64,000 nt of DNA. It comes from a bacterium (GTDB lineage Bacteria; Gemmatimonadota; Gemmatimonadetes; Gemmatimonadales; Gemmatimonadaceae). The DNA lies in the NCBI GenBank assembly GCA_027484025.1, contig JAIXTI010000287.1, positions 5,137-69,136 on the forward strand, given 5' to 3'. The stretch's first letter is position 1; each line of letters opens with the position of its first letter. This document shows, in pieces, positions 20,679-63,370 of the stretch. A model generated the notes under the pieces. The model worked only from the letters and a program-made list of their open reading frames with translations, did not search any database and was not told where the DNA came from. The position numbers were made by a program, and so were the translations under genes.

Positions 20679-21344
20679 TCAGACAGTCGAACGCAGCCCC
20701 CGAAGCAGGGCGTGACCGATCCCCATCCCTACCTGATGCGCGGCGCGGGGATTGAGAATGTTCGAGGCGACGGCCATCGCCGCCACGCCGTGCAACCCGA
20801 GCCAGACCATCATGGCCACTTGCATGGGCTGGTGTGCGCCGGCCTCACCGGCCGCACACAATGCCTCGCAGGCGCGAATGAGGACGCCGAAGGCCGGGTC
20901 GTCGCGAAAATGCGCACTCTGGTCCGGCATCACACCGATGTCCGGCCGGTCGAGGAACATCACGCGGTAGCGTTCCGGTTTCGCCAGCGCGAATCGCAGG
21001 TACGCATCGCCCAAGGACATCATCCGCTCGTGGGGGGCGACATCGGGGCGGTCGGCGTCTTCGAGCGCGCGGGCGAACTGCTGGAACCACTTCTGAAGCA
21101 CCGCCTCAATCAGGGCATCGCGGTCGCGAAAATGCCGGTAAATCGTGGTGGGGGTGTACTGCGTGGCCTCCGCGACTTCCCGCAACGAGAACGCTTCGTA
21201 GCCCTTGTCGAGCAACTGCTCTTCGGCCACTTCGAGCAGCAAGTCGCGCAACCGCCCACGCTGTGCCTCGCGCCGCTCCGCCGAGCGGTTTTTGAGGCGA
21301 TCAGCGCGCGAATGGGTAGGGCTTGGCGGCTCTGCGTTACTCAT
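20679..21344 (-). CDS. TetR/AcrR family regulator
   Basis: HTH motif GYEAFSLREVAEAT..TPTTIYRHF.DRDAL. Confidence 0.92.
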   Translation of the reverse strand: MSNAEPPSPTHSRADRLKNRSAERREAQRGRLRDLLLEVAEEQLLDKGYEAFSLREVAEATQYTPTTIYRHFRDRDALIEAVLQKWFQQFARALEDADRPDVAPHERMMSLGDAYLRFALAKPERYRVMFLDRPDIGVMPDQSAHFRDDPAFGVLIRACEALCAAGEAGAHQPMQVAMMVWLGLHGVAAMAVASNILNPRAAHQVGMGIGHALLRGLRSTV

Positions 21345-22504: not shown

Positions 22505-22762
22505 TCAAGGCAAGACGAGCGCCGCATCGATATCGTCGACATCGAAGTACACGATCGCCCCTGCCTTCATCGGCACGTACACGTCGCCCTTCGCCAGTGC
22601 CCCGCTGGCACCGGGGAGTCCATCGGCACGCGGGAAGAAGGCCATCGCACATCCGTCAACCGTGCGCTTCTCGAGCGTCGTGCCCAGCACGAACTCGTAA
22701 TACCGAACCGCGCGATTGAGATCGGTGACGGGAATTTCGAACCGGTAGACGGGGTTGGTCAT
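22505..22762 (-). pseudogene. Truncated duplicate VOC gene
   Basis: 72 of the first 82 aa are identical to 21400-21771; then VLP-stop, so about 40 aa are missing. Confidence 0.85.
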
Positions 22763-22929
22763 ATTGGGACAGGCATGGGCGTAATCCCGTGTGTGGTGCC
22801 TGGATATTGTGTGCGCCGCGGCGAGGCGCGTCACATCGCGCAGTCTCCATTCGCCCGGAACGCACGGCAACTCCCGCGACCGCTTGCGCTTGGACGCATC
22901 CGGGCGCGGGAGCACACCAGCCAGGGGGC

Positions 22930-23739
22930 TCAGCCCTCGCAGGTGTTGTTGCCGACGATCTTCGCGATGTCTGCCTCGAGCTTTTGCTGTGCGGCGCTCA
23001 GGCGGAGACGCGCCGGCAGGACTTGCTCGAGAGCGCTGCTGATTTGCGCCTCGATGGCACTGCTGGTCTGCGTGCCGTTTCGCAGCGCCGTGATCTTCGC
23101 CAGGGCCTGATCGATGACGGCCACATCAGCCGCGATCGCCGATGAGAAAGCCTGAACGAGCGTGGCGATCTGCTGTGTCTGTGCGGGTGAAAGCACGGGA
23201 CCGTTCGCGCATGTGGCGAGCCACTCGCGCTGCGCAGGCGACAGGATGGCCTCGATAGCGGCGAAATAGGCGGCGCGGGCGGCTTCGAGACGCTTCTGAA
23301 TCTCGGCGCCAGTGGCCATGATGGCATCGATGCTTGCCGAAGTGGCCCCGGATTGCCGAGCGGAGCGTGCCTGAGCGACAATCGCGTCGTAGGCCGCAAC
23401 ATCTGACGCCATGTCCTTTTCGTGCTTCGCCTCGAGAGCGTTCAACTGCGCCTGCTGCGCAGACGTCAACGCCAATGACGCCGGAAGTCGAGACACCAAC
23501 GCGCCCGTCGATATCGCCGCACGGGCACCGGCTCGCGCGGCACTCTGCGCGATCGCGGTCGTTGATCGGATCAGGCTATCGTTTGCCGTCGCCTGCGCCG
23601 CCAGCACGCCGCTGCCGACGTCGGTCGACGAAGGCGCCACGGGCGCGGCATCGCTACACGCCGTGACGAGAACCAACCCAGCGACCGGTATCCAAACCGG
23701 CGCGACGACCGCTCGGCCGCGCTTGTAGAACCCGAACAT
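22930..23739 (-). CDS. Lipoprotein with tandem Spy/CpxP-like (LTxxQ) helical repeats
   Basis: GGAG SD before ATG 23739; lipobox VTAC; LALTSAQQAQ, ILSPAQRE and VLSPAQTQQ motifs. Confidence 0.7.
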   Translation of the reverse strand: MFGFYKRGRAVVAPVWIPVAGLVLVTACSDAAPVAPSSTDVGSGVLAAQATANDSLIRSTTAIAQSAARAGARAAISTGALVSRLPASLALTSAQQAQLNALEAKHEKDMASDVAAYDAIVAQARSARQSGATSASIDAIMATGAEIQKRLEAARAAYFAAIEAILSPAQREWLATCANGPVLSPAQTQQIATLVQAFSSAIAADVAVIDQALAKITALRNGTQTSSAIEAQISSALEQVLPARLRLSAAQQKLEADIAKIVGNNTCEG

Positions 23740-23815
23740 GTGATGCTCCTGAGAAGATGTGAGATCGCAGCACCGGCGCTTGAACCAAACCTTCACGCCC
23801 ACTGCTAGATGTTCC

Positions 23816-23844
23816 ACACCAACGGTGCGCAGCACCCTGACACC
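23816..23844 (-). promoter_or_regulatory. Candidate ECF promoter GGTGTCAGGGT-N14-GTGT (copy 1)
   Basis: Same motif and spacing as 24424-24452; directly after the sigma stop codon and upstream of the Spy-like gene. Confidence 0.6.
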
Positions 23845-23845
23845 T

Positions 23846-24409
23846 TCACGATCGACACTCCTTCAGCCGCTGTCGCAGTGACCGCAATGCACGACTCATC
23901 TGCGTTTCGACGGTTTTCACCGAAATGTCGAGCATCATGGCAATCTCGTTGTACGTCAGCCCACGCTGCCGACTGAGCAGGAATATCTCGCGTGCACCAG
24001 GCGCGAGTGTGGCAATGGCATCGAAGAGTGATCGCTGCAGCTCCGCCGCCGCGAGATTCTTTTCCACACTCGGTGTAGCATCGGCAATCTGCTCGGTGAC
24101 GTCGGAGTCACTCGCTATCGTACGCTGCTGTCGACGCTGATTTCGTACGTAGTTGAATGCGCGATTGCGACACGCTTGAAACAGATAGGCCGGCAGCCCA
24201 TCTGGAATGTCGACGGCCCGACGCTGCCGCCAGGTCGCGAGCAAGGCATCCTGTACGATGTCTTCCGCTGCCATGGCGTCACGCACGATCAGGTACACGG
24301 CCGACGCCAATCGTGGGTGCAGTTCGCGCGCCACACTGTCGAACGCGTCCGTGAGCGCTACATCGTCCTGCGGCCAGATGCGGTCTGGTGATTGCTCAGG
24401 GCTCGACAT
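23846..24409 (-). CDS. ECF RNA polymerase sigma-70 factor (FecI-like)
   Basis: Region 2 AEDIVQDALLATW..R, region 4 REIFLLSR..GLTYNEIA..LDISVKTVETQMSRAL. Confidence 0.93.
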   Translation of the reverse strand: MSSPEQSPDRIWPQDDVALTDAFDSVARELHPRLASAVYLIVRDAMAAEDIVQDALLATWRQRRAVDIPDGLPAYLFQACRNRAFNYVRNQRRQQRTIASDSDVTEQIADATPSVEKNLAAAELQRSLFDAIATLAPGAREIFLLSRQRGLTYNEIAMMLDISVKTVETQMSRALRSLRQRLKECRS

Positions 24410-24423
24410 GCCAGCTATAAAGG

Positions 24424-24452
24424 GGTGTCAGGGTACGACGACGTGCATGTGT
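24424..24452 (+). promoter_or_regulatory. Candidate ECF promoter GGTGTCAGGGT-N14-GTGT (copy 2)
   Basis: Upstream of fecR; identical motif and spacing to 23816-23844. Confidence 0.6.
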
Positions 24453-24535
24453 CCTTGAGGGCAGATGAACGCTGCTTCCATTCAAGACACCCGCAGCACG
24501 CGCCACCCCGACTTGTTCCGCACACTGGAATTCCT

Positions 24536-25615
24536 ATGTCTCAACCGACGCAGGGGGAAGACGATCTCCGCTGGCTGGAAGCCACCCGGCTTGTCGCTGG
24601 TGGACTCGATGAGTCCGTTGTCTCACCGGCGCGCGCCTGGTTGCTCTCCACCGCGGAGGGTCGGGCCGCTCTTGAAGAGGCCCAGCTCGCATGGACCGAA
24701 GCAGCACCGCTCGCTGCGATGCCTAGCGTCGCGTGGGACACCGATCAGACCATGCGGCGGTTTCAGGCAGCCCGCGCCGTTGATGCGGCCTTCCACAGAT
24801 CGGTTGGAGTAGCGGCAGACGCACTGCCGGCAAGAAAGTCGGCTCGAGTTGGTTTTTCGCACACCGTTGCGCCAGGGGGCATTCGCTGGTGGGGCTTGGC
24901 AGCGGCCGCGACGTTGGCCGTGGCGGTCATCGGAGGGGCCATGTGGCAGCGCCTCGCTACCGTCCGTGCAGACAGGACAGACGTCGCCACCGTGGCCCTG
25001 TCGGCCGCTTCGGGCGCTGCGCCTCGAGCGGTGGCGCTCGCTGATGGTTCACAAGTCACACTGGCTCCCGGTAGTACCCTGCGAAGTGCACCCGGATACG
25101 GCTCGGAGCACCGACTACTCGAGCTCGTTGGCGATGCGTTGTTTACGGTAAAGGCCGGCCCACATGCGTTTCAGGTGCGAACGGGCGACGTGCTCGTGGA
25201 GGACGTGAGCACGTCCTTTGTCGTGCGAGGACGGGACGATGGGGTGCTCGTCGTCGTGGTCGATGGCGCGGTCGTCGTGGGTGCGCGTCGAGATACATTG
25301 CGTGTCGGGACTGGTGGCATGGTCGCGAAGGATGGCCTCATCGCGCCGCTCGATCGGGCGTCGATACGGAGTGCGACGGCCTGGCCGCAGGGTGTGTTGG
25401 TGTTTGCCGATGAACCGTTGCGCGAAGTAGCGCGACGCCTGAGCCGGTGGACGGGGCAGACCTTACGGGTCGACGCGGCGCTCGAGGAGCAGCCGGTCAC
25501 CGTCACCTTCGACGGTGAGTCGCCGAGCGTGATGTTCGAGGTGCTGGCCACCACGGTGGGGGCGTCGCTCGAGTCAACGCCCTCTGGGTGGAGGCTTCGC
25601 CGCAATTCACCATGA
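24536..25615 (+). CDS. FecR family anti-sigma/transmembrane transducer
   Basis: N-terminal W-containing helices, a TM segment, LADGSQVTLAPGS..R, and C-terminal W..G.LVF.DEPL.EV...L.R. Confidence 0.88.
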   Translation: MSQPTQGEDDLRWLEATRLVAGGLDESVVSPARAWLLSTAEGRAALEEAQLAWTEAAPLAAMPSVAWDTDQTMRRFQAARAVDAAFHRSVGVAADALPARKSARVGFSHTVAPGGIRWWGLAAAATLAVAVIGGAMWQRLATVRADRTDVATVALSAASGAAPRAVALADGSQVTLAPGSTLRSAPGYGSEHRLLELVGDALFTVKAGPHAFQVRTGDVLVEDVSTSFVVRGRDDGVLVVVVDGAVVVGARRDTLRVGTGGMVAKDGLIAPLDRASIRSATAWPQGVLVFADEPLREVARRLSRWTGQTLRVDAALEEQPVTVTFDGESPSVMFEVLATTVGASLESTPSGWRLRRNSP

Positions 25616-28065
25616 CCGCATGCAGCTGCTGGGCACGACGGGTGATGATCTGTGCGGCGCTGATGCTTCTGGTTCGCGACGCCGATGCGCTGCCACGTCC
25701 TCGAGGCGACAGGCGCGAGTCACCGTGTCGGGGGGACGAGTCGTCCACCGGTCGTAGCGCATGGCAGCTTCATCGCGTGCCGTTGATTCAGGCGCTGCAG
25801 GACATCGCTGTACGGGCTGGCTGGCGGGTGTCGTTCAGTAGCGAAGCGCTGCCGGACACACGTGTATCGGTGTGGTGCGAGCCGTTTGATGGACTCGCGG
25901 CCGTGCGAGTCGTGCTTGCCGGGACGCGACTCCGCGCGGTGCTGCGCGACGGACTGCTGATCGTGGCGCCACCCGCCGAGGGGCGACGCCCAATTGATGG
26001 AGAGGAATGGGCGCGCCTGCAGCACCTGCCGATGCAGCGAATCGAGGCGCAACGCCCAGCGTCCTCTTCGCTCCTCACCTCCGTCGTCACGGGCGCCGGT
26101 GCGGCCGCGACCGTGATCGACGCCAACGGTTCGCTCACGCGTGGTGAGCTGTCGGTAGGCGAAACACTGCGCGGGCAGTTGCCCGGATTGGCGGCCTGGG
26201 ATCGCGGCGCCGGGGCGCTGCGCATCGCCAGTGTACGCGGTCGGGGGGCAGACGGTGGCGCCGGGGTGAAGATATTCATTGATGGCATCGAAGCCGCCGA
26301 CCCCTCATCGGTCCTGGCGCTGGATATGCGCAGCATCGCCCGGCTGCAGTGGTTACCTGGCGGCGCCGGCGCCTCGGTGTACGGGACCGACGCACTCGAT
26401 GGCGTGCTCGCGATCAGCACCCGGGCCGCGTCTCGTGATAACGACTCGGCGCTCTCCCTCGCGTCGTTGCGCCTCGGGGCCGCCGGTTCGCGGTTGCAAC
26501 CGGGCTCCTTGTGGTCGATCGACGGCGCAGCGTCCAGACGGTGGGTCCGCACGGTAGGCAAACGCGACGACGGCGCCGGCCACGTGTCCCCGGCGTTTCG
26601 TCTCGCCTCCGGGGTGACCGGCTCGTTTGAGCAGCAGGACGTACCATTCGGTATCATGCCGATCCGCGTGGCGGGTGTCGCATGGTCGGCGAGCGTCGAC
26701 GCGAAACGTTGGCGTGCACAGCTCAACGTGCGCGGCGCCGCCGGCCGACAGTTTCTCGCGTTCGAGCCGATCCCGGCTGTGCCGAATACCCACAGCCGAT
26801 CCGCGCCGGCCAGTGCGCCAGCGCTGGACGAGGAGCGGGTGCGCGATGGACACGCCGGTGTGTCGCTGCACTGGGGCGGGTCCCGCGCAATGCACGCGGT
26901 GCAATTGGCCGTGTCCTACTCCAATCGCGAGGCCGGCAGCGTGGCGCAGCGTCGCTCGATGCTCGACAGCATTCGCGTGGCCTGGCGCGGACCCGTGCAA
27001 CGAACGACTGCCCGATACCGCAGCGAAGTCCCCCTAGTGGGCACGGCGCTGGCGCTGTCGCTCGCAGGTGATGCCGGATATCTGGTGCGCACGGCACCGG
27101 ACAGCAGCGGTTTCGCCAACGCGCTTGGAGACAGCTCGATCGCACAATCCCTGGTGGGTGGAAGCGCCATTCTCCAGGCGACGCACTCACGCTTGCGCTG
27201 GTCCGCGGGTCTGCGAAGAGAGTGGAATAGCGCGGTGGGGCGGGACGTTCGCTGGTTCTGGCTCCCGTCCGCCGGGGCGCAATTCGATATGCCGGCACTC
27301 GGCGCGCTCGCCTCACGTCTGCGCGTGGCGTATGGCAGCAGCGCGCGCGCGCCCGCGCCTTCGATGAGTGCGGCGCGAAGCACGTCCCGCTTTCTGCAGC
27401 GGGCGAACCCAACGCTACCTGGCGAGCGTCAGCGGGCCGCCGAAGTTGGAGTAAACGGCGTATTCGGCTCGGCGGCAACGCTCGACATCACGGCGTATCG
27501 CCAACGCACCGAGGGCTTCACTCAACTGGTGGCCACGGGGCGCATCGACACGGTGGACGGGGGGCTGCGGCGTGAGCTTCAGTACGGCGTGCTGGGAACG
27601 GTCGAGGCACAGGGACTCGAGTTCAGTGGCACATGGCGCACCAGATGGGGAGAGGGGCGCGGGAGCGGGACGCTGCTGCGCTCGCGCGTCGTGACGCTGA
27701 CGCCAGAGTACCGAGGCGTCTTGTCTGTAGGAGCCGAGCCGCTGGAGGCCCCGCAACGCAACGGTGCCGTATCGTGGACCACGCGCCGCGGGAAGAATCA
27801 GTTGACGGTGGGCGCCAGTGTGATTGGCGCATGGCGGACGGCGGCGTGGGGATGCGTACTCTCCCGCGACGCCGGTTGTGACGCGAATACTCCCGTCATT
27901 GTCCCCATGGTCGCCCGCTGGAACGCCACATTCGAGGGCGCGCCGTTGGCCGGGTGGCGATGGCGCGTGCGCGGCGAGAACCTCAACGACAATCAGCGGG
28001 TGGACGGGAGCCCCGGACTCATCAGGCCGGGGCGGGCATTTTCCCTCGAGATTGGCCGTTGGTGA
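25612..28065 (+). CDS. TonB-dependent receptor/transducer with STN-like N-terminal extension (divergent)
   Basis: ATGA overlap with fecR; STN-like PLIQALQDIA..AG..VSFS; plug FIDGI...YG.DA.DGV..ISTR; barrel-like C-terminus. Confidence 0.78.
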   Translation: MTACSCWARRVMICAALMLLVRDADALPRPRGDRRESPCRGDESSTGRSAWQLHRVPLIQALQDIAVRAGWRVSFSSEALPDTRVSVWCEPFDGLAAVRVVLAGTRLRAVLRDGLLIVAPPAEGRRPIDGEEWARLQHLPMQRIEAQRPASSSLLTSVVTGAGAAATVIDANGSLTRGELSVGETLRGQLPGLAAWDRGAGALRIASVRGRGADGGAGVKIFIDGIEAADPSSVLALDMRSIARLQWLPGGAGASVYGTDALDGVLAISTRAASRDNDSALSLASLRLGAAGSRLQPGSLWSIDGAASRRWVRTVGKRDDGAGHVSPAFRLASGVTGSFEQQDVPFGIMPIRVAGVAWSASVDAKRWRAQLNVRGAAGRQFLAFEPIPAVPNTHSRSAPASAPALDEERVRDGHAGVSLHWGGSRAMHAVQLAVSYSNREAGSVAQRRSMLDSIRVAWRGPVQRTTARYRSEVPLVGTALALSLAGDAGYLVRTAPDSSGFANALGDSSIAQSLVGGSAILQATHSRLRWSAGLRREWNSAVGRDVRWFWLPSAGAQFDMPALGALASRLRVAYGSSARAPAPSMSAARSTSRFLQRANPTLPGERQRAAEVGVNGVFGSAATLDITAYRQRTEGFTQLVATGRIDTVDGGLRRELQYGVLGTVEAQGLEFSGTWRTRWGEGRGSGTLLRSRVVTLTPEYRGVLSVGAEPLEAPQRNGAVSWTTRRGKNQLTVGASVIGAWRTAAWGCVLSRDAGCDANTPVIVPMVARWNATFEGAPLAGWRWRVRGENLNDNQRVDGSPGLIRPGRAFSLEIGRW

Positions 28066-28098: not shown

Positions 28099-28575
28099 TC
28101 AGGCGGTTAGCAGCTGTACCAACGACTGCAGCGCCAGGTTCGGCGTCCCAAAGAACTGCGCATCCACCGCCTCGACCAGCGGCAGCGCGCGGCGCACGAG
28201 ACGCCGACCCGTCGCGGTGGATACGAGGCGCTTTGCGCGCGCGTCGTCCGGATGCGCCCTGCGCTCGACGTATCCTTTGCGCTCGAGCGTGCGCATGACC
28301 TCCGAGGTCATGACCGCATCGGTCGCGGTGTGCGTGGCCACGACGGTTTGCGTAACGGGCACGTCGGGCGACTCCGCCTCGAGCCACACGACCGTTGCCA
28401 GCAACACGAACTGCGCGTGGGTAAGGTCGAGATCGTCGAGCGCCGCCCGGATGGCCCGCTGCCACGCCGATGCCACCTGCCAGAGGAGAAAGCCGGCACT
28501 CTCGGCGGGTCCGGCAAAGCGGGAGCCCACCGCCGTCGCCCCGCGTCCGGCCGCCGCGCGGGAACGCTCAGACAT
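28099..28575 (-). CDS. MarR family regulator
   Basis: SAGFLLWQV...LTHAQFVLL...LERKGYVERR.HP.D.RAKR. Confidence 0.92.
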   Translation of the reverse strand: MSERSRAAAGRGATAVGSRFAGPAESAGFLLWQVASAWQRAIRAALDDLDLTHAQFVLLATVVWLEAESPDVPVTQTVVATHTATDAVMTSEVMRTLERKGYVERRAHPDDARAKRLVSTATGRRLVRRALPLVEAVDAQFFGTPNLALQSLVQLLTA

Positions 28576-29035: not shown

Positions 29036-29076
29036 GTAGTACGTGTACGTAGCACAATACTACGTACACGTACTAC
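29036..29076. promoter_or_regulatory. Perfect 17-bp inverted repeat, candidate MarR operator
   Basis: GTAGTACGTGTACGTAG-cacaata-CTACGTACACGTACTAC lies about 20 nt upstream of the SRPBCC-marR operon. Confidence 0.6.
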
Positions 29077-29270
29077 CGTCGTCAACCACGTCGGGGCGCG
29101 CCGCGTCCTGGCGAGGTCGTGCCGTAACGCGTAGCCGGGCAGATAGGCGGCACGACTCCCCCGCGTGTCGTCATGGCACGGAGGTCCACGTTGATTTCGT
29201 CCACTCCACGCCGCACCTTCCACATGCCCGGACACACCCGGCATGCTCCCCTTTCTCGTATTCGACGATC

Positions 29271-30221
29271 ATGGAACTGCGGCATCTGCGCTACTTCGTT
29301 CGTGTCGCCGAGCTCGAGCACTTTGGCCGCGCCGCGACCAAACTGAATGTGTCGCAGCCCGCGCTGTCCCAGCAGATCGCAGAACTGGAACGCGAAATCG
29401 GCGTCGCGCTCTTCGAACGCCGTCCGCGCGGCGTGCTCCTCTCCGACGCAGGCCGGCTGATGCTCACGCGCGCACGCGAGATTCTGGCCGCCGTCGATAC
29501 GGCGGTGGAGGATACCCGCGACGTGGGGCTCGGACGGAAAGGGCGCCTGCTCGTCGGGCTGCCCGAAGGGAATCGCGCCCTCGCGGTGATCCGTCGCGCC
29601 GTGGAGCGGTTTCGTAGTGAGCGCCCCGACGTGGAGCTGGTCACCACGGGGCTTCCGTGGAGCGAACAGCCACGGGAGGTGCTCGATGGTCGACTCGATG
29701 TAGCCTTCTGCTGGCAAGTTGCCGACATGACCGCGGCCGATGACGGGCGCGATCAAGCGAGCGCCCCGCATGCGGTCGGCCTGGCGTGGCACGCGCTCTT
29801 TGCGGATCCCGGTTGCTATGTGCTCGTGGAGCAGGCGTCCCCGCTGGCCACGCAGGAGTCCGTGTCCATGAGTGACCTGCACGGGCGTCCGTTGGCGATC
29901 GTATCGCGAGAGCTGCTGCCGGTGCTCTTCGATCGCATCACGGCCGCCGTGCGGGCGGCCGGTGGCCCCGCGCCGTCCGTGACCGACGGTGTGCGCACCG
30001 CTGCTGCGTTGACGCCATTGCTCACGACCAACGATGGATGGGCGCTCATTCCAGAGTCACTCAGGACGGCCGCACCGCCGGGCACGGTGGCGCGCCCACT
30101 CGCGGACTTCAGCATTCCCGGATCGCTCGATGTGCTTTGGCGTGAAGGCGATGAACGCGTCACCGTACACGCATTCGTGCAACTCGTGCGTGAAGTCAGC
30201 GAGGAAGAACGCGCGTCATAA
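29271..30221 (+). CDS. LysR family regulator
   Basis: MELRHLRYF...HFGRAA..LNVSQPALSQQI..LE.E.GV.LFER. Confidence 0.93.
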   Translation: MELRHLRYFVRVAELEHFGRAATKLNVSQPALSQQIAELEREIGVALFERRPRGVLLSDAGRLMLTRAREILAAVDTAVEDTRDVGLGRKGRLLVGLPEGNRALAVIRRAVERFRSERPDVELVTTGLPWSEQPREVLDGRLDVAFCWQVADMTAADDGRDQASAPHAVGLAWHALFADPGCYVLVEQASPLATQESVSMSDLHGRPLAIVSRELLPVLFDRITAAVRAAGGPAPSVTDGVRTAAALTPLLTTNDGWALIPESLRTAAPPGTVARPLADFSIPGSLDVLWREGDERVTVHAFVQLVREVSEEERAS

Positions 30222-54976: not shown

Positions 54977-55096
54977 GGGGTCAGAGTCGTGGGCATCGCC
55001 GGAGGGTCGGGGGGCAACAAGGGGTCAGAGTCGTTTGCATGGCCGGAGGGTCGGGGGGCAACGAGGGGTCAGAGTCGTTTTTGGGGTCAGAGTCGT
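54977..55096 (+). repeat. Tandem array of four GGGGTCAGAGTCGT arms
   Basis: Arms at 54977, 55021, 55065 and 55083; two near-identical 44-bp units. Confidence 0.85.
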
Positions 55097-63219: not shown

Positions 63220-63370
63220 GGGGTCAGAGTCGTTGATCGCGGTCTCACCACTCCGGCAAAAGGGGTCAGAGTCAAAAAAGGGGTCAGAGTCGTTTTGGCG
63301 GTTCAACGACCCTGACCCCTTTTGGCGCTGACCCCTTTTTTGACTCTGACCCCTTTTTGACTCTGACCCC
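63220..63370. repeat. Nested inverted array of GGGGTCAGAGTC arms
   Basis: Forward arms at 63220, 63262 and 63280; reverse arms at about 63306-63319, 63328-63335, 63342-63353 and 63359-63370. Confidence 0.9.

Follow-up and report, generated by a model that had tools for sequence, protein, structure and literature searches.

A bipartite sequence motif is repeated on both sides of the gene that encodes an ECF (extracytoplasmic function) sigma factor of the FecI-like type (23846-24409, minus strand) in the 64,000-nucleotide stretch of the genome of a Gemmatimonas species (family Gemmatimonadaceae) analyzed here, which we call the window (positions 5137-69136 of contig C199 in a 4.74-Mb assembly of 65% G+C). 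We consider it highly probable, at roughly 85%, that the motif represents the sigma factor's own set of target promoters in a cell-surface-signaling module. The first-pass annotation of this DNA, made from the letters alone, had proposed two outward-facing copies of a bipartite ECF-type promoter, serving a Spy-like gene on one side and fecR with its TonB-dependent receptor (TBDR) on the other; footprinting in related genomes, together with a -35 element that co-varies with the sigma factor in a paralogous family, upholds that proposal. From these sequence comparisons we infer that the sites are recognized by the sigma factor of the window.

Two outward-facing motif copies and their conservation

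The minus-strand copy (23816-23844) consists of GGTGTCAGGGT, the 14-nt spacer GCTGCGCACCGTTG and GTGT, and the plus-strand copy (24424-24452) of GGTGTCAGGGT, the 14-nt spacer ACGACGACGTGCAT and GTGT. Both occurrences of the 11-mer with GTGT 14 nt later were found exactly where they had been annotated, and the gene context agrees with the orientation described for them, one copy lying just after the sigma stop codon and facing the Spy-like gene, the other facing fecR and the TBDR gene. The annotation had also suggested a genome-wide scan for the motif, and across the whole assembly this returned only the window's two full copies: the 11-mer occurs at these two sites alone, and the relaxed pattern GTCAGGGT-N14-GTGT matches the same two and nothing else. 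A shuffle test of the fixed pattern gave 0.09 expected matches.

We also asked how often any 11-mer recurs together with a 4-mer 14 nt later, using first-order Markov versions of the 64-kb window. Since at least one such 11+4 pair within 1 kb was present in 84 of 100 random copies (mean 2.1), the repeat is not significant by itself. In the listed part of the 11+4 pairs, nearly all of 101 fall in dense repeat clusters at about 55010-55095 and 63257-63365. The case for the two copies flanking the sigma gene being non-random comes from their position, their uniqueness in the genome and their conservation in other genomes.

The minus-strand copy, here named P_spy, is a conserved motif copy and the predicted promoter of the LTXXQ lipoprotein gene, with a -35 element TGTCAGGGT at 23842-23834, a spacer at 23833-23820 and a -10 element GTGT at 23819-23816. 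It starts 2 nt past the sigma stop codon, and 76 nt separate its -10 element from the ATG downstream of it, at 23739. There is no room for a terminator between the sigma gene and the lipoprotein gene. The plus-strand copy, P_fecR, likewise a conserved motif copy, is the predicted promoter of the fecR-transducer operon and has its -35 element TGTCAGGGT at 24426-24434 and its -10 element GTGT at 24449-24452; the -35 core starts on the strand opposite to sigma, 16 nt past its start codon, and the -10 element is 83 nt upstream of the fecR ATG. When the conserved -35 core TGTCAGGGT is read as TGTCAG-N17-GTGT, the predicted promoters have ordinary ECF promoter geometry. Competing signals were looked for in 22700-25000, and neither a sigma-70 consensus promoter nor a terminator nor an Rfam element turned up at the sites. 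Two Rfam matches in this region, one to mir-275 and one to the S4-Bacteroidia leader (23127-23170, minus strand; 26.6 bits against a gathering threshold of 34.7, E=0.008), were judged to be chance, the latter being below threshold and inside the LTXXQ lipoprotein open reading frame (ORF).

We compared the locus with 12 others, which come from about 11 additional genomes of Gemmatimonadaceae (compared loci are labeled L0xx; the window's own genome is G000, with C152, C19 and C68 among its contigs). Among the 87 species genomes available for the genus, 10, counting the window's, carry an orthologue of the sigma gene, as does one genome of a neighboring genus; L006 is a more distant locus from the same genus. 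Scans for the sigma factor in genome and metagenome contigs yielded one further close locus, L023, the remainder being distant ECF sigma factors without the motif. Gene order is the same in every compared locus, with the lipoprotein gene downstream of sigma, and fecR and then the transducer gene diverging from it; lipoprotein orthologues follow the sigma gene in L023, L002, L021, L004, L003, L043 and L044.

The core TGTCAGGGT-N14/15-G(T/G)GT recurs at the same two places across the 12 further loci, with diverged spacers; the spacing is mostly 14 nt and occasionally 15, and the -10 element is GTGT or GGGT. The box originally annotated as an 11-mer is present as such in the window, but the core conserved across genomes is the 9-mer TGTCAGGGT. 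All 12 compared loci have a P_fecR-type site, which lies on the strand opposite to sigma just past its start codon and faces fecR. The P_spy-type site lies right after the sigma stop codon and faces the lipoprotein gene; L022 has a degenerate copy of it (TGTAGGGGG) that overlaps this codon. Overlap of the lipoprotein-promoter -35 element with the sigma stop codon was seen in L021 and L022 (TGA in CGTGATGTCAGGGG; TAG in GATGTAGGGGG). In the loci used for footprinting (L002-L006 and L021-L023), the two boxes of each flanking site remain 14-15 nt apart, whereas spacers and flanks drift, and the information profile of 15 sites consists of two sharp islands, one at the 9-mer and one at GTGT.

A weight matrix derived exclusively from sites of other genomes ranked P_fecR first (24.7-24.8 bits) and P_spy second (24.1 bits) of 18.9 million positions, with the next best position in the genome at 18.1 bits. 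The next matches, considered as possible further regulon members, reach at most 18.1 bits; the majority of those checked are inside long frames free of stop codons (588-762 amino acids), and they were set aside as probable background. In three loci held out of the matrix (L043, L044 and L045), the two best matches fell at both expected positions. This pattern is the classical footprint of what appears to be a promoter recognized by a locally encoded sigma factor. The two copies might instead be a chance repeat or what is left of the terminal inverted repeats of a mobile element; most random 64-kb windows are expected to contain some 11+4 pair within 1 kb. We assign this explanation a negligible probability: the boxes hold their two positions across loci with diverged spacers and conserved synteny, no transposase is present, and the sites come first and second genome-wide with a matrix of foreign origin.

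A third site and the control of the sigma gene

A third, weaker copy of the motif lies upstream of the sigma gene and is a candidate autoregulatory promoter (P_sig, 24487-24513, minus strand), proposed on its matrix score and its conservation within a clade. It is composed of AGTCGGGGT (24513-24505), the spacer GGCGCGTGCTGCGG (24504-24491) and GTGT (24490-24487), and is located within the fecR leader, on the sigma gene's own strand and face-to-face with P_fecR, with its -10 element 77 nt from the sigma ATG. The -10 boxes of all three window sites are thus 76-83 nt upstream of a start codon. With the matrix of other genomes' P_fecR and P_spy sites, which contains no P_sig site, it scores 15.9 bits and is 10th of the 18.9 million positions; with the full matrix it is third genome-wide. 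Homologues of P_sig with diverged spacers, 77-78 nt from the sigma ATG, are found in L021 (22.7 bits, with a perfect GTCAGGGT), L023 (13.7 bits) and L002 (12.5 bits), and these three genomes form one clade with the window's genome in the sigma tree (support 84/88).

Because P_sig is common to this four-genome clade, autoregulation of the sigma gene seems more likely than not in the window's genome, and we lean toward P_sig being functional there. The first-pass annotation had the sigma factor driving two outward units without driving itself from those sites; with the third copy, it probably does drive itself. From the distribution of the sites, we conclude that in the ancestral design the sigma gene was probably expressed from a non-cognate promoter and flanked by two outward-facing cognate promoters, to which the window's clade added a weak autoregulatory one. 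A leaderless sigma-A promoter might also serve the sigma gene, but the AT-rich stretch located 6-12 nt ahead of its ATG fits TAnnnT inconsistently.

The predicted transcription starts of P_sig and P_fecR are about 20 bp apart. Given this distance and the face-to-face arrangement, the two leaders would cross and the polymerase footprints would overlap; that the two promoters compete is speculation on our part.

A further possibility is that the 11-bp inverted repeat acts in RNA rather than in DNA. The 5' untranslated region carries ACCCUGACACC just upstream of the sigma AUG, and pairing of this arm with GGUGUCAGGGU in the 3' flank would loop out the sigma ORF and might control its translation or processing. 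A transcript that started at P_sig and read through past the stop codon would carry both arms, and the 5' arm is 14-24 nt upstream of the AUG. However, two opposed copies of one promoter give complementary arms automatically, pairing leaves unexplained the conserved GTGT located 14 nt outside each arm, and the motif is also present where a locus has no P_sig-type start. Between the arms, both of which keep the consensus, we saw no compensatory changes. We regard a role in RNA as very improbable and a set of promoters as the better account of the repeat.

Paralogous sigma families and their -35 elements

Most genomes of the genus encode a paralogous FecI-like sigma factor of about 40% identity, which in the window's genome is found at C152:24284-24760. 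The paralogue's locus there (C152:22944-25812) and in L007-L020 is arranged as in the window, with a lipoprotein gene downstream and a divergent fecR-TBDR operon, and both flanks carry (A/G)CGTAGGGT-N14-GTGT, which shares AGGGT, N14 and GTGT with the window motif. In L015, from a genome of another family of the order (G035), a sigma gene whose product is 44% identical and has the region-4.2 helix SVKTVETLM is accompanied on both sides by CTGTAGGGGT-N15-GTGT (at about 2089 on the plus strand and about 1462 on the minus strand), so the design with two outward promoters is older than the genus. The divergence of sigma from its fecR, which had been annotated as unusual, is a conserved layout in at least three related Gemmatimonadales sigma families.

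Differences between the motifs run parallel to differences between the sigma factors. The region-4.2 recognition helix is SVKTVETQMSRAL (SVKTVETQM) in the window's family and SVKAVEANMSRAL (SVKAVEANM) in the paralogue, whereas the region-2 segment YL.Q..RNRALNHLR is common to both sigma groups. Likewise, the -10 box and the spacing are shared between the families, while the 5' half of the -35 element (TGTC vs ACGT) differs with the sigma factor. In ECF sigma factors, recognition of the -35 element falls to sigma-4 and that of the -10 element to sigma-2. Each sigma factor reading its own flanking motif would therefore fit the observation that helix 4.2 and the -35 element differ, and region 2 and the -10 element are shared.

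This co-variation bears on two other explanations of the boxes. They might be operators for a classical transcription factor, for example a neighboring LysR, MarR or TetR regulator, and genes for a LysR (29043-30221) and a TetR regulator (20679-21344) are indeed nearby. Yet the motif is asymmetric and bipartite with a fixed 14 nt between its parts, is neither a palindrome nor a direct repeat, and is always aimed at a downstream gene. The unit of sigma, fecR, TBDR and lipoprotein genes is kept in all orthologous loci (the comparison covered this unit only), and the -35 element changes together with the sigma region-4.2 helix in the paralogues. An operator is improbable on this evidence.

Alternatively, the sites could be ECF promoters read by a different ECF sigma factor, such as the C152 paralogue, with the window's sigma gene merely embedded in its regulon. 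Some cross-talk is conceivable, as the paralogue's motif shares AGGGT-N14-GTGT, and a few orthologous sites have TGTAGGGG variants similar to the boxes of other families. Nevertheless, the choice of TGTC or ACGT in the -35 element tracks the adjacent sigma family in all loci, and most genomes of the genus have the paralogue and CGTAGGGT sites but lack the window's sigma factor. The TGTCAGGGT sites were found beside orthologues of this sigma factor, which were the only places searched. We rate reading by another sigma factor as improbable as an operator, and continue to favor recognition by the window's sigma factor.

About 100-150 nt upstream of the paralogous sigma gene in L007-L020 and on C152, a conserved (G)TAGTATA(C) on the sigma strand has the TAnnnT look of a housekeeping -10 element, a resemblance that suggests that the paralogous sigma gene is not autoregulated. 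At nine of the paralogue's loci (L008, L011, L012, L014, L016, L017, L019, L020 and C152 at about 24085 on the minus strand), the fecR ATG follows GTGT by about 9-11 nt, so the paralogue's fecR mRNA would have little or no leader, against leaders of 40-100 nt in the window's family. Further sites of the paralogue's type, at C19:1980 and C68:44336, were rejected as not convincingly upstream of genes.

Several points weigh against our interpretation of the sites as the sigma factor's promoters. The usual ECF promoter consensus is GGAAC/CGT, and both the -35 and the -10 element found here differ from it. Many genomes in the comparison are close relatives of one another, which leaves fewer independent observations than sites. 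P_sig is absent from 8 of the 12 other loci and is weak in the window, with two mismatches in its -35 element, and its conservation could come in part from the surrounding fecR leader. According to published work, recognition of the -35 element by FecI-like sigma factors is weak and their promoters resist prediction (PMC7776599), which makes a stringent 9-nt -35 element somewhat unexpected.

Putting the window and the paralogues together, we offer a tentative and rather doubtful extension. Gemmatimonadales may hold mutually orthogonal pairs of FecI-like sigma factors and promoters, with a long, stringent -35 element (TGTCAGGGT, ACGTAGGGT or CTGTAGGGGT) and a common GTGT, in which specificity would be set by about three region-4.2 residues (KTVETQ vs KAVEAN). 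The newly gained P_sig, whose transcripts would have 5' ends antisense to those of P_fecR, would then make self-amplification of sigma compete with synthesis of the anti-sigma factor and receptor for one stretch of DNA.

Genes of the module, proposed circuit and known systems

By its predicted products, the locus is a cell-surface-signaling trio (sigma factor, FecR and transducer) joined by a gene for a putative periplasmic lipoprotein. The sigma factor (187 amino acids) contains only sigma-2 and sigma-4 domains, matched by Pfam Sigma70_r2 (PF04542, 42.9 bits) and Sigma70_r4_2 (PF08281, 52.9 bits), both over their cut-offs, as well as by TIGR02937 (103.9 bits) and TIGR02985 (135 bits, cut-off 126.4); its closest named record is from Gemmatimonas sp. 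DEX182b (81% sigma identity), whose sequence NZ_CP050872 is also the nearest complete genome. The description of the sigma factor as FecI-like agrees with these domains, with the TIGR02985 match and with the adjacent FecR and transducer. Directly downstream on the same strand, the LTXXQ (Spy/CpxP-like) gene (22930-23739, minus strand) encodes 269 amino acids with a PF07813 match of 30.9-34.1 bits (cut-off 24.3). A Shine-Dalgarno sequence, GGAG, precedes its ATG and is conserved among orthologues, and the N-terminus ends in LVLVTAC, which reads as lipobox-like; the product is predicted to be exported as a periplasmic lipoprotein.

Divergent from sigma, fecR (24536-25615, plus strand; 359 amino acids) encodes a FecR-like transmembrane anti-sigma factor with matches over cut-off to PF04773 (44.5 bits) and PF16344 (26.1 bits). 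Its stop codon overlaps the start codon of the transducer gene (25612-28065, plus strand) in ATGA (25612-25615), an overlap that implies an operon with translational coupling. The encoded receptor had no STN or Plug match in Pfam and weak TonB-receptor matches in NCBIfam. A profile of six receptor orthologues matches SusC plugs and the PupA signaling domain 2a02_A (E=8e-4). A low-confidence AlphaFold2 model of the receptor (mean predicted local distance difference test score 53) has a beta-alpha-beta-beta-alpha-beta-beta domain at residues 59-127 followed by plug and barrel, and Foldseek retrieved TonB-dependent transporters down to E=1.5e-14, FoxA and FpvA among them. Together these give moderate support for a TonB-dependent transducer with a SusC-like plug and an N-terminal signaling (STN) domain. 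A convergent ORF of 158 amino acids (28099-28575, minus strand) directly past the receptor gene bounds the fecR-TBDR operon and is followed by the LysR-type gene, on the plus strand. No SusD, Fur box or siderophore genes were seen adjacent to the locus.

By analogy with the Fec, Pup and Fox systems (PMC9249621), we can sketch how the module might signal. The transducer would bind its ligand and signal to FecR, which would release or activate the sigma factor, and RNA polymerase with this sigma factor would start transcription about 6-10 nt downstream of each GTGT. From P_fecR it would raise expression of the fecR-transducer operon, yielding more receptor and replenishing the anti-sigma factor. 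P_spy, acting as an internal promoter that abuts the sigma stop codon, would raise the LTXXQ lipoprotein, and the weak P_sig of this sub-lineage would raise sigma and, by read-through, the lipoprotein gene.

Our literature search found no work on ECF systems of Gemmatimonas, and to our knowledge no ECF system of Gemmatimonadota has been studied. The circuit is clear but fairly ordinary, a local ECF regulon with a predicted cognate promoter of known type, and leaves the current understanding of ECF signaling unchanged. With its paralogues, the locus provides a clean promoter model, a complete predicted regulon of three transcription units, and what may be a natural switch in -35 specificity associated with a small number of sigma-4 residues. 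This could help to annotate the regulons of Gemmatimonadota and could supply synthetic circuits with orthogonal parts. Todor et al. found FecI-like sigma factors over-represented among ECFs without a significant promoter prediction (PMC7776599), and because promoter prediction fails most often for this group, a clean case has some value.

The closest well-known parallel is the E. coli FecI-FecR-FecA system, which likewise combines an ECF sigma factor, a FecR-type membrane regulator and a TonB transducer with an N-terminal signaling domain, and which has a tiny local regulon centered on the receptor gene (PMC9249621). In E. coli, fecIR is one operon driven by sigma-70 and Fur, without autoregulation, and FecI drives the fecA promoter only (PMC9249621). 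Here, by contrast, sigma is a solitary gene, fecR and the transducer gene would be transcribed together under predicted sigma control, the LTXXQ lipoprotein gene is a second predicted target, and autoregulation is suggested by the third site. The Fec system's promoter sequence is unrelated to the one found here, and we saw no Fur box or link to iron.

The SusC-linked ECF/anti-sigma systems of Bacteroidetes (ECF10; ECF239/ECF240 in classification 2.0) resemble the module in their FecR-like anti-sigma factor, in the window's sigma factor passing TIGR02985 ('Bacteroides expansion family 1') and in the plug of the transducer, which is closest to SusC/RagA. At the time of PMC7826278, by that paper's account, experiments on ECF240 members were lacking. 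Unlike those systems, the present one is in a Gemmatimonadota host without an adjacent SusD or carbohydrate-binding gene, and the sigma gene is divergent from fecR instead of standing in a row of sigma, anti-sigma and susC genes. In ECF241, a gene for a protein of the CpxP/Spy/LTXXQ kind also adjoins a FecI-like sigma gene (PMC7826278). The ECF241 partner is a two-transmembrane PF13801 'heavy-metal resistance' protein proposed to be the anti-sigma factor, and FecR is missing (PMC7826278), whereas the window has a canonical FecR and an LTXXQ protein that looks like the lipoprotein product of a target gene; its match to PF13801 was insignificant (E=5).

In promoter sequence, the nearest comparison is with ECF41, whose target promoter is TGTCACA-N16-CGTC/TGTT (PMC3426412). 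ECF41 sigma factors lack an anti-sigma factor and carry a regulatory domain fused to their C-terminus, and the window's sigma factor belongs to another group; its predicted promoter also differs in a -35 element that extends to AGGGT and in the -10 element GTGT. The two nevertheless have in common the TGTC type of -35 element, a -10 element that is short and rich in G and T, and a spacing of 16-17 nt, together with a very small regulon that adjoins the sigma gene and a sigma gene that often has no upstream motif of its own (PMC3426412).

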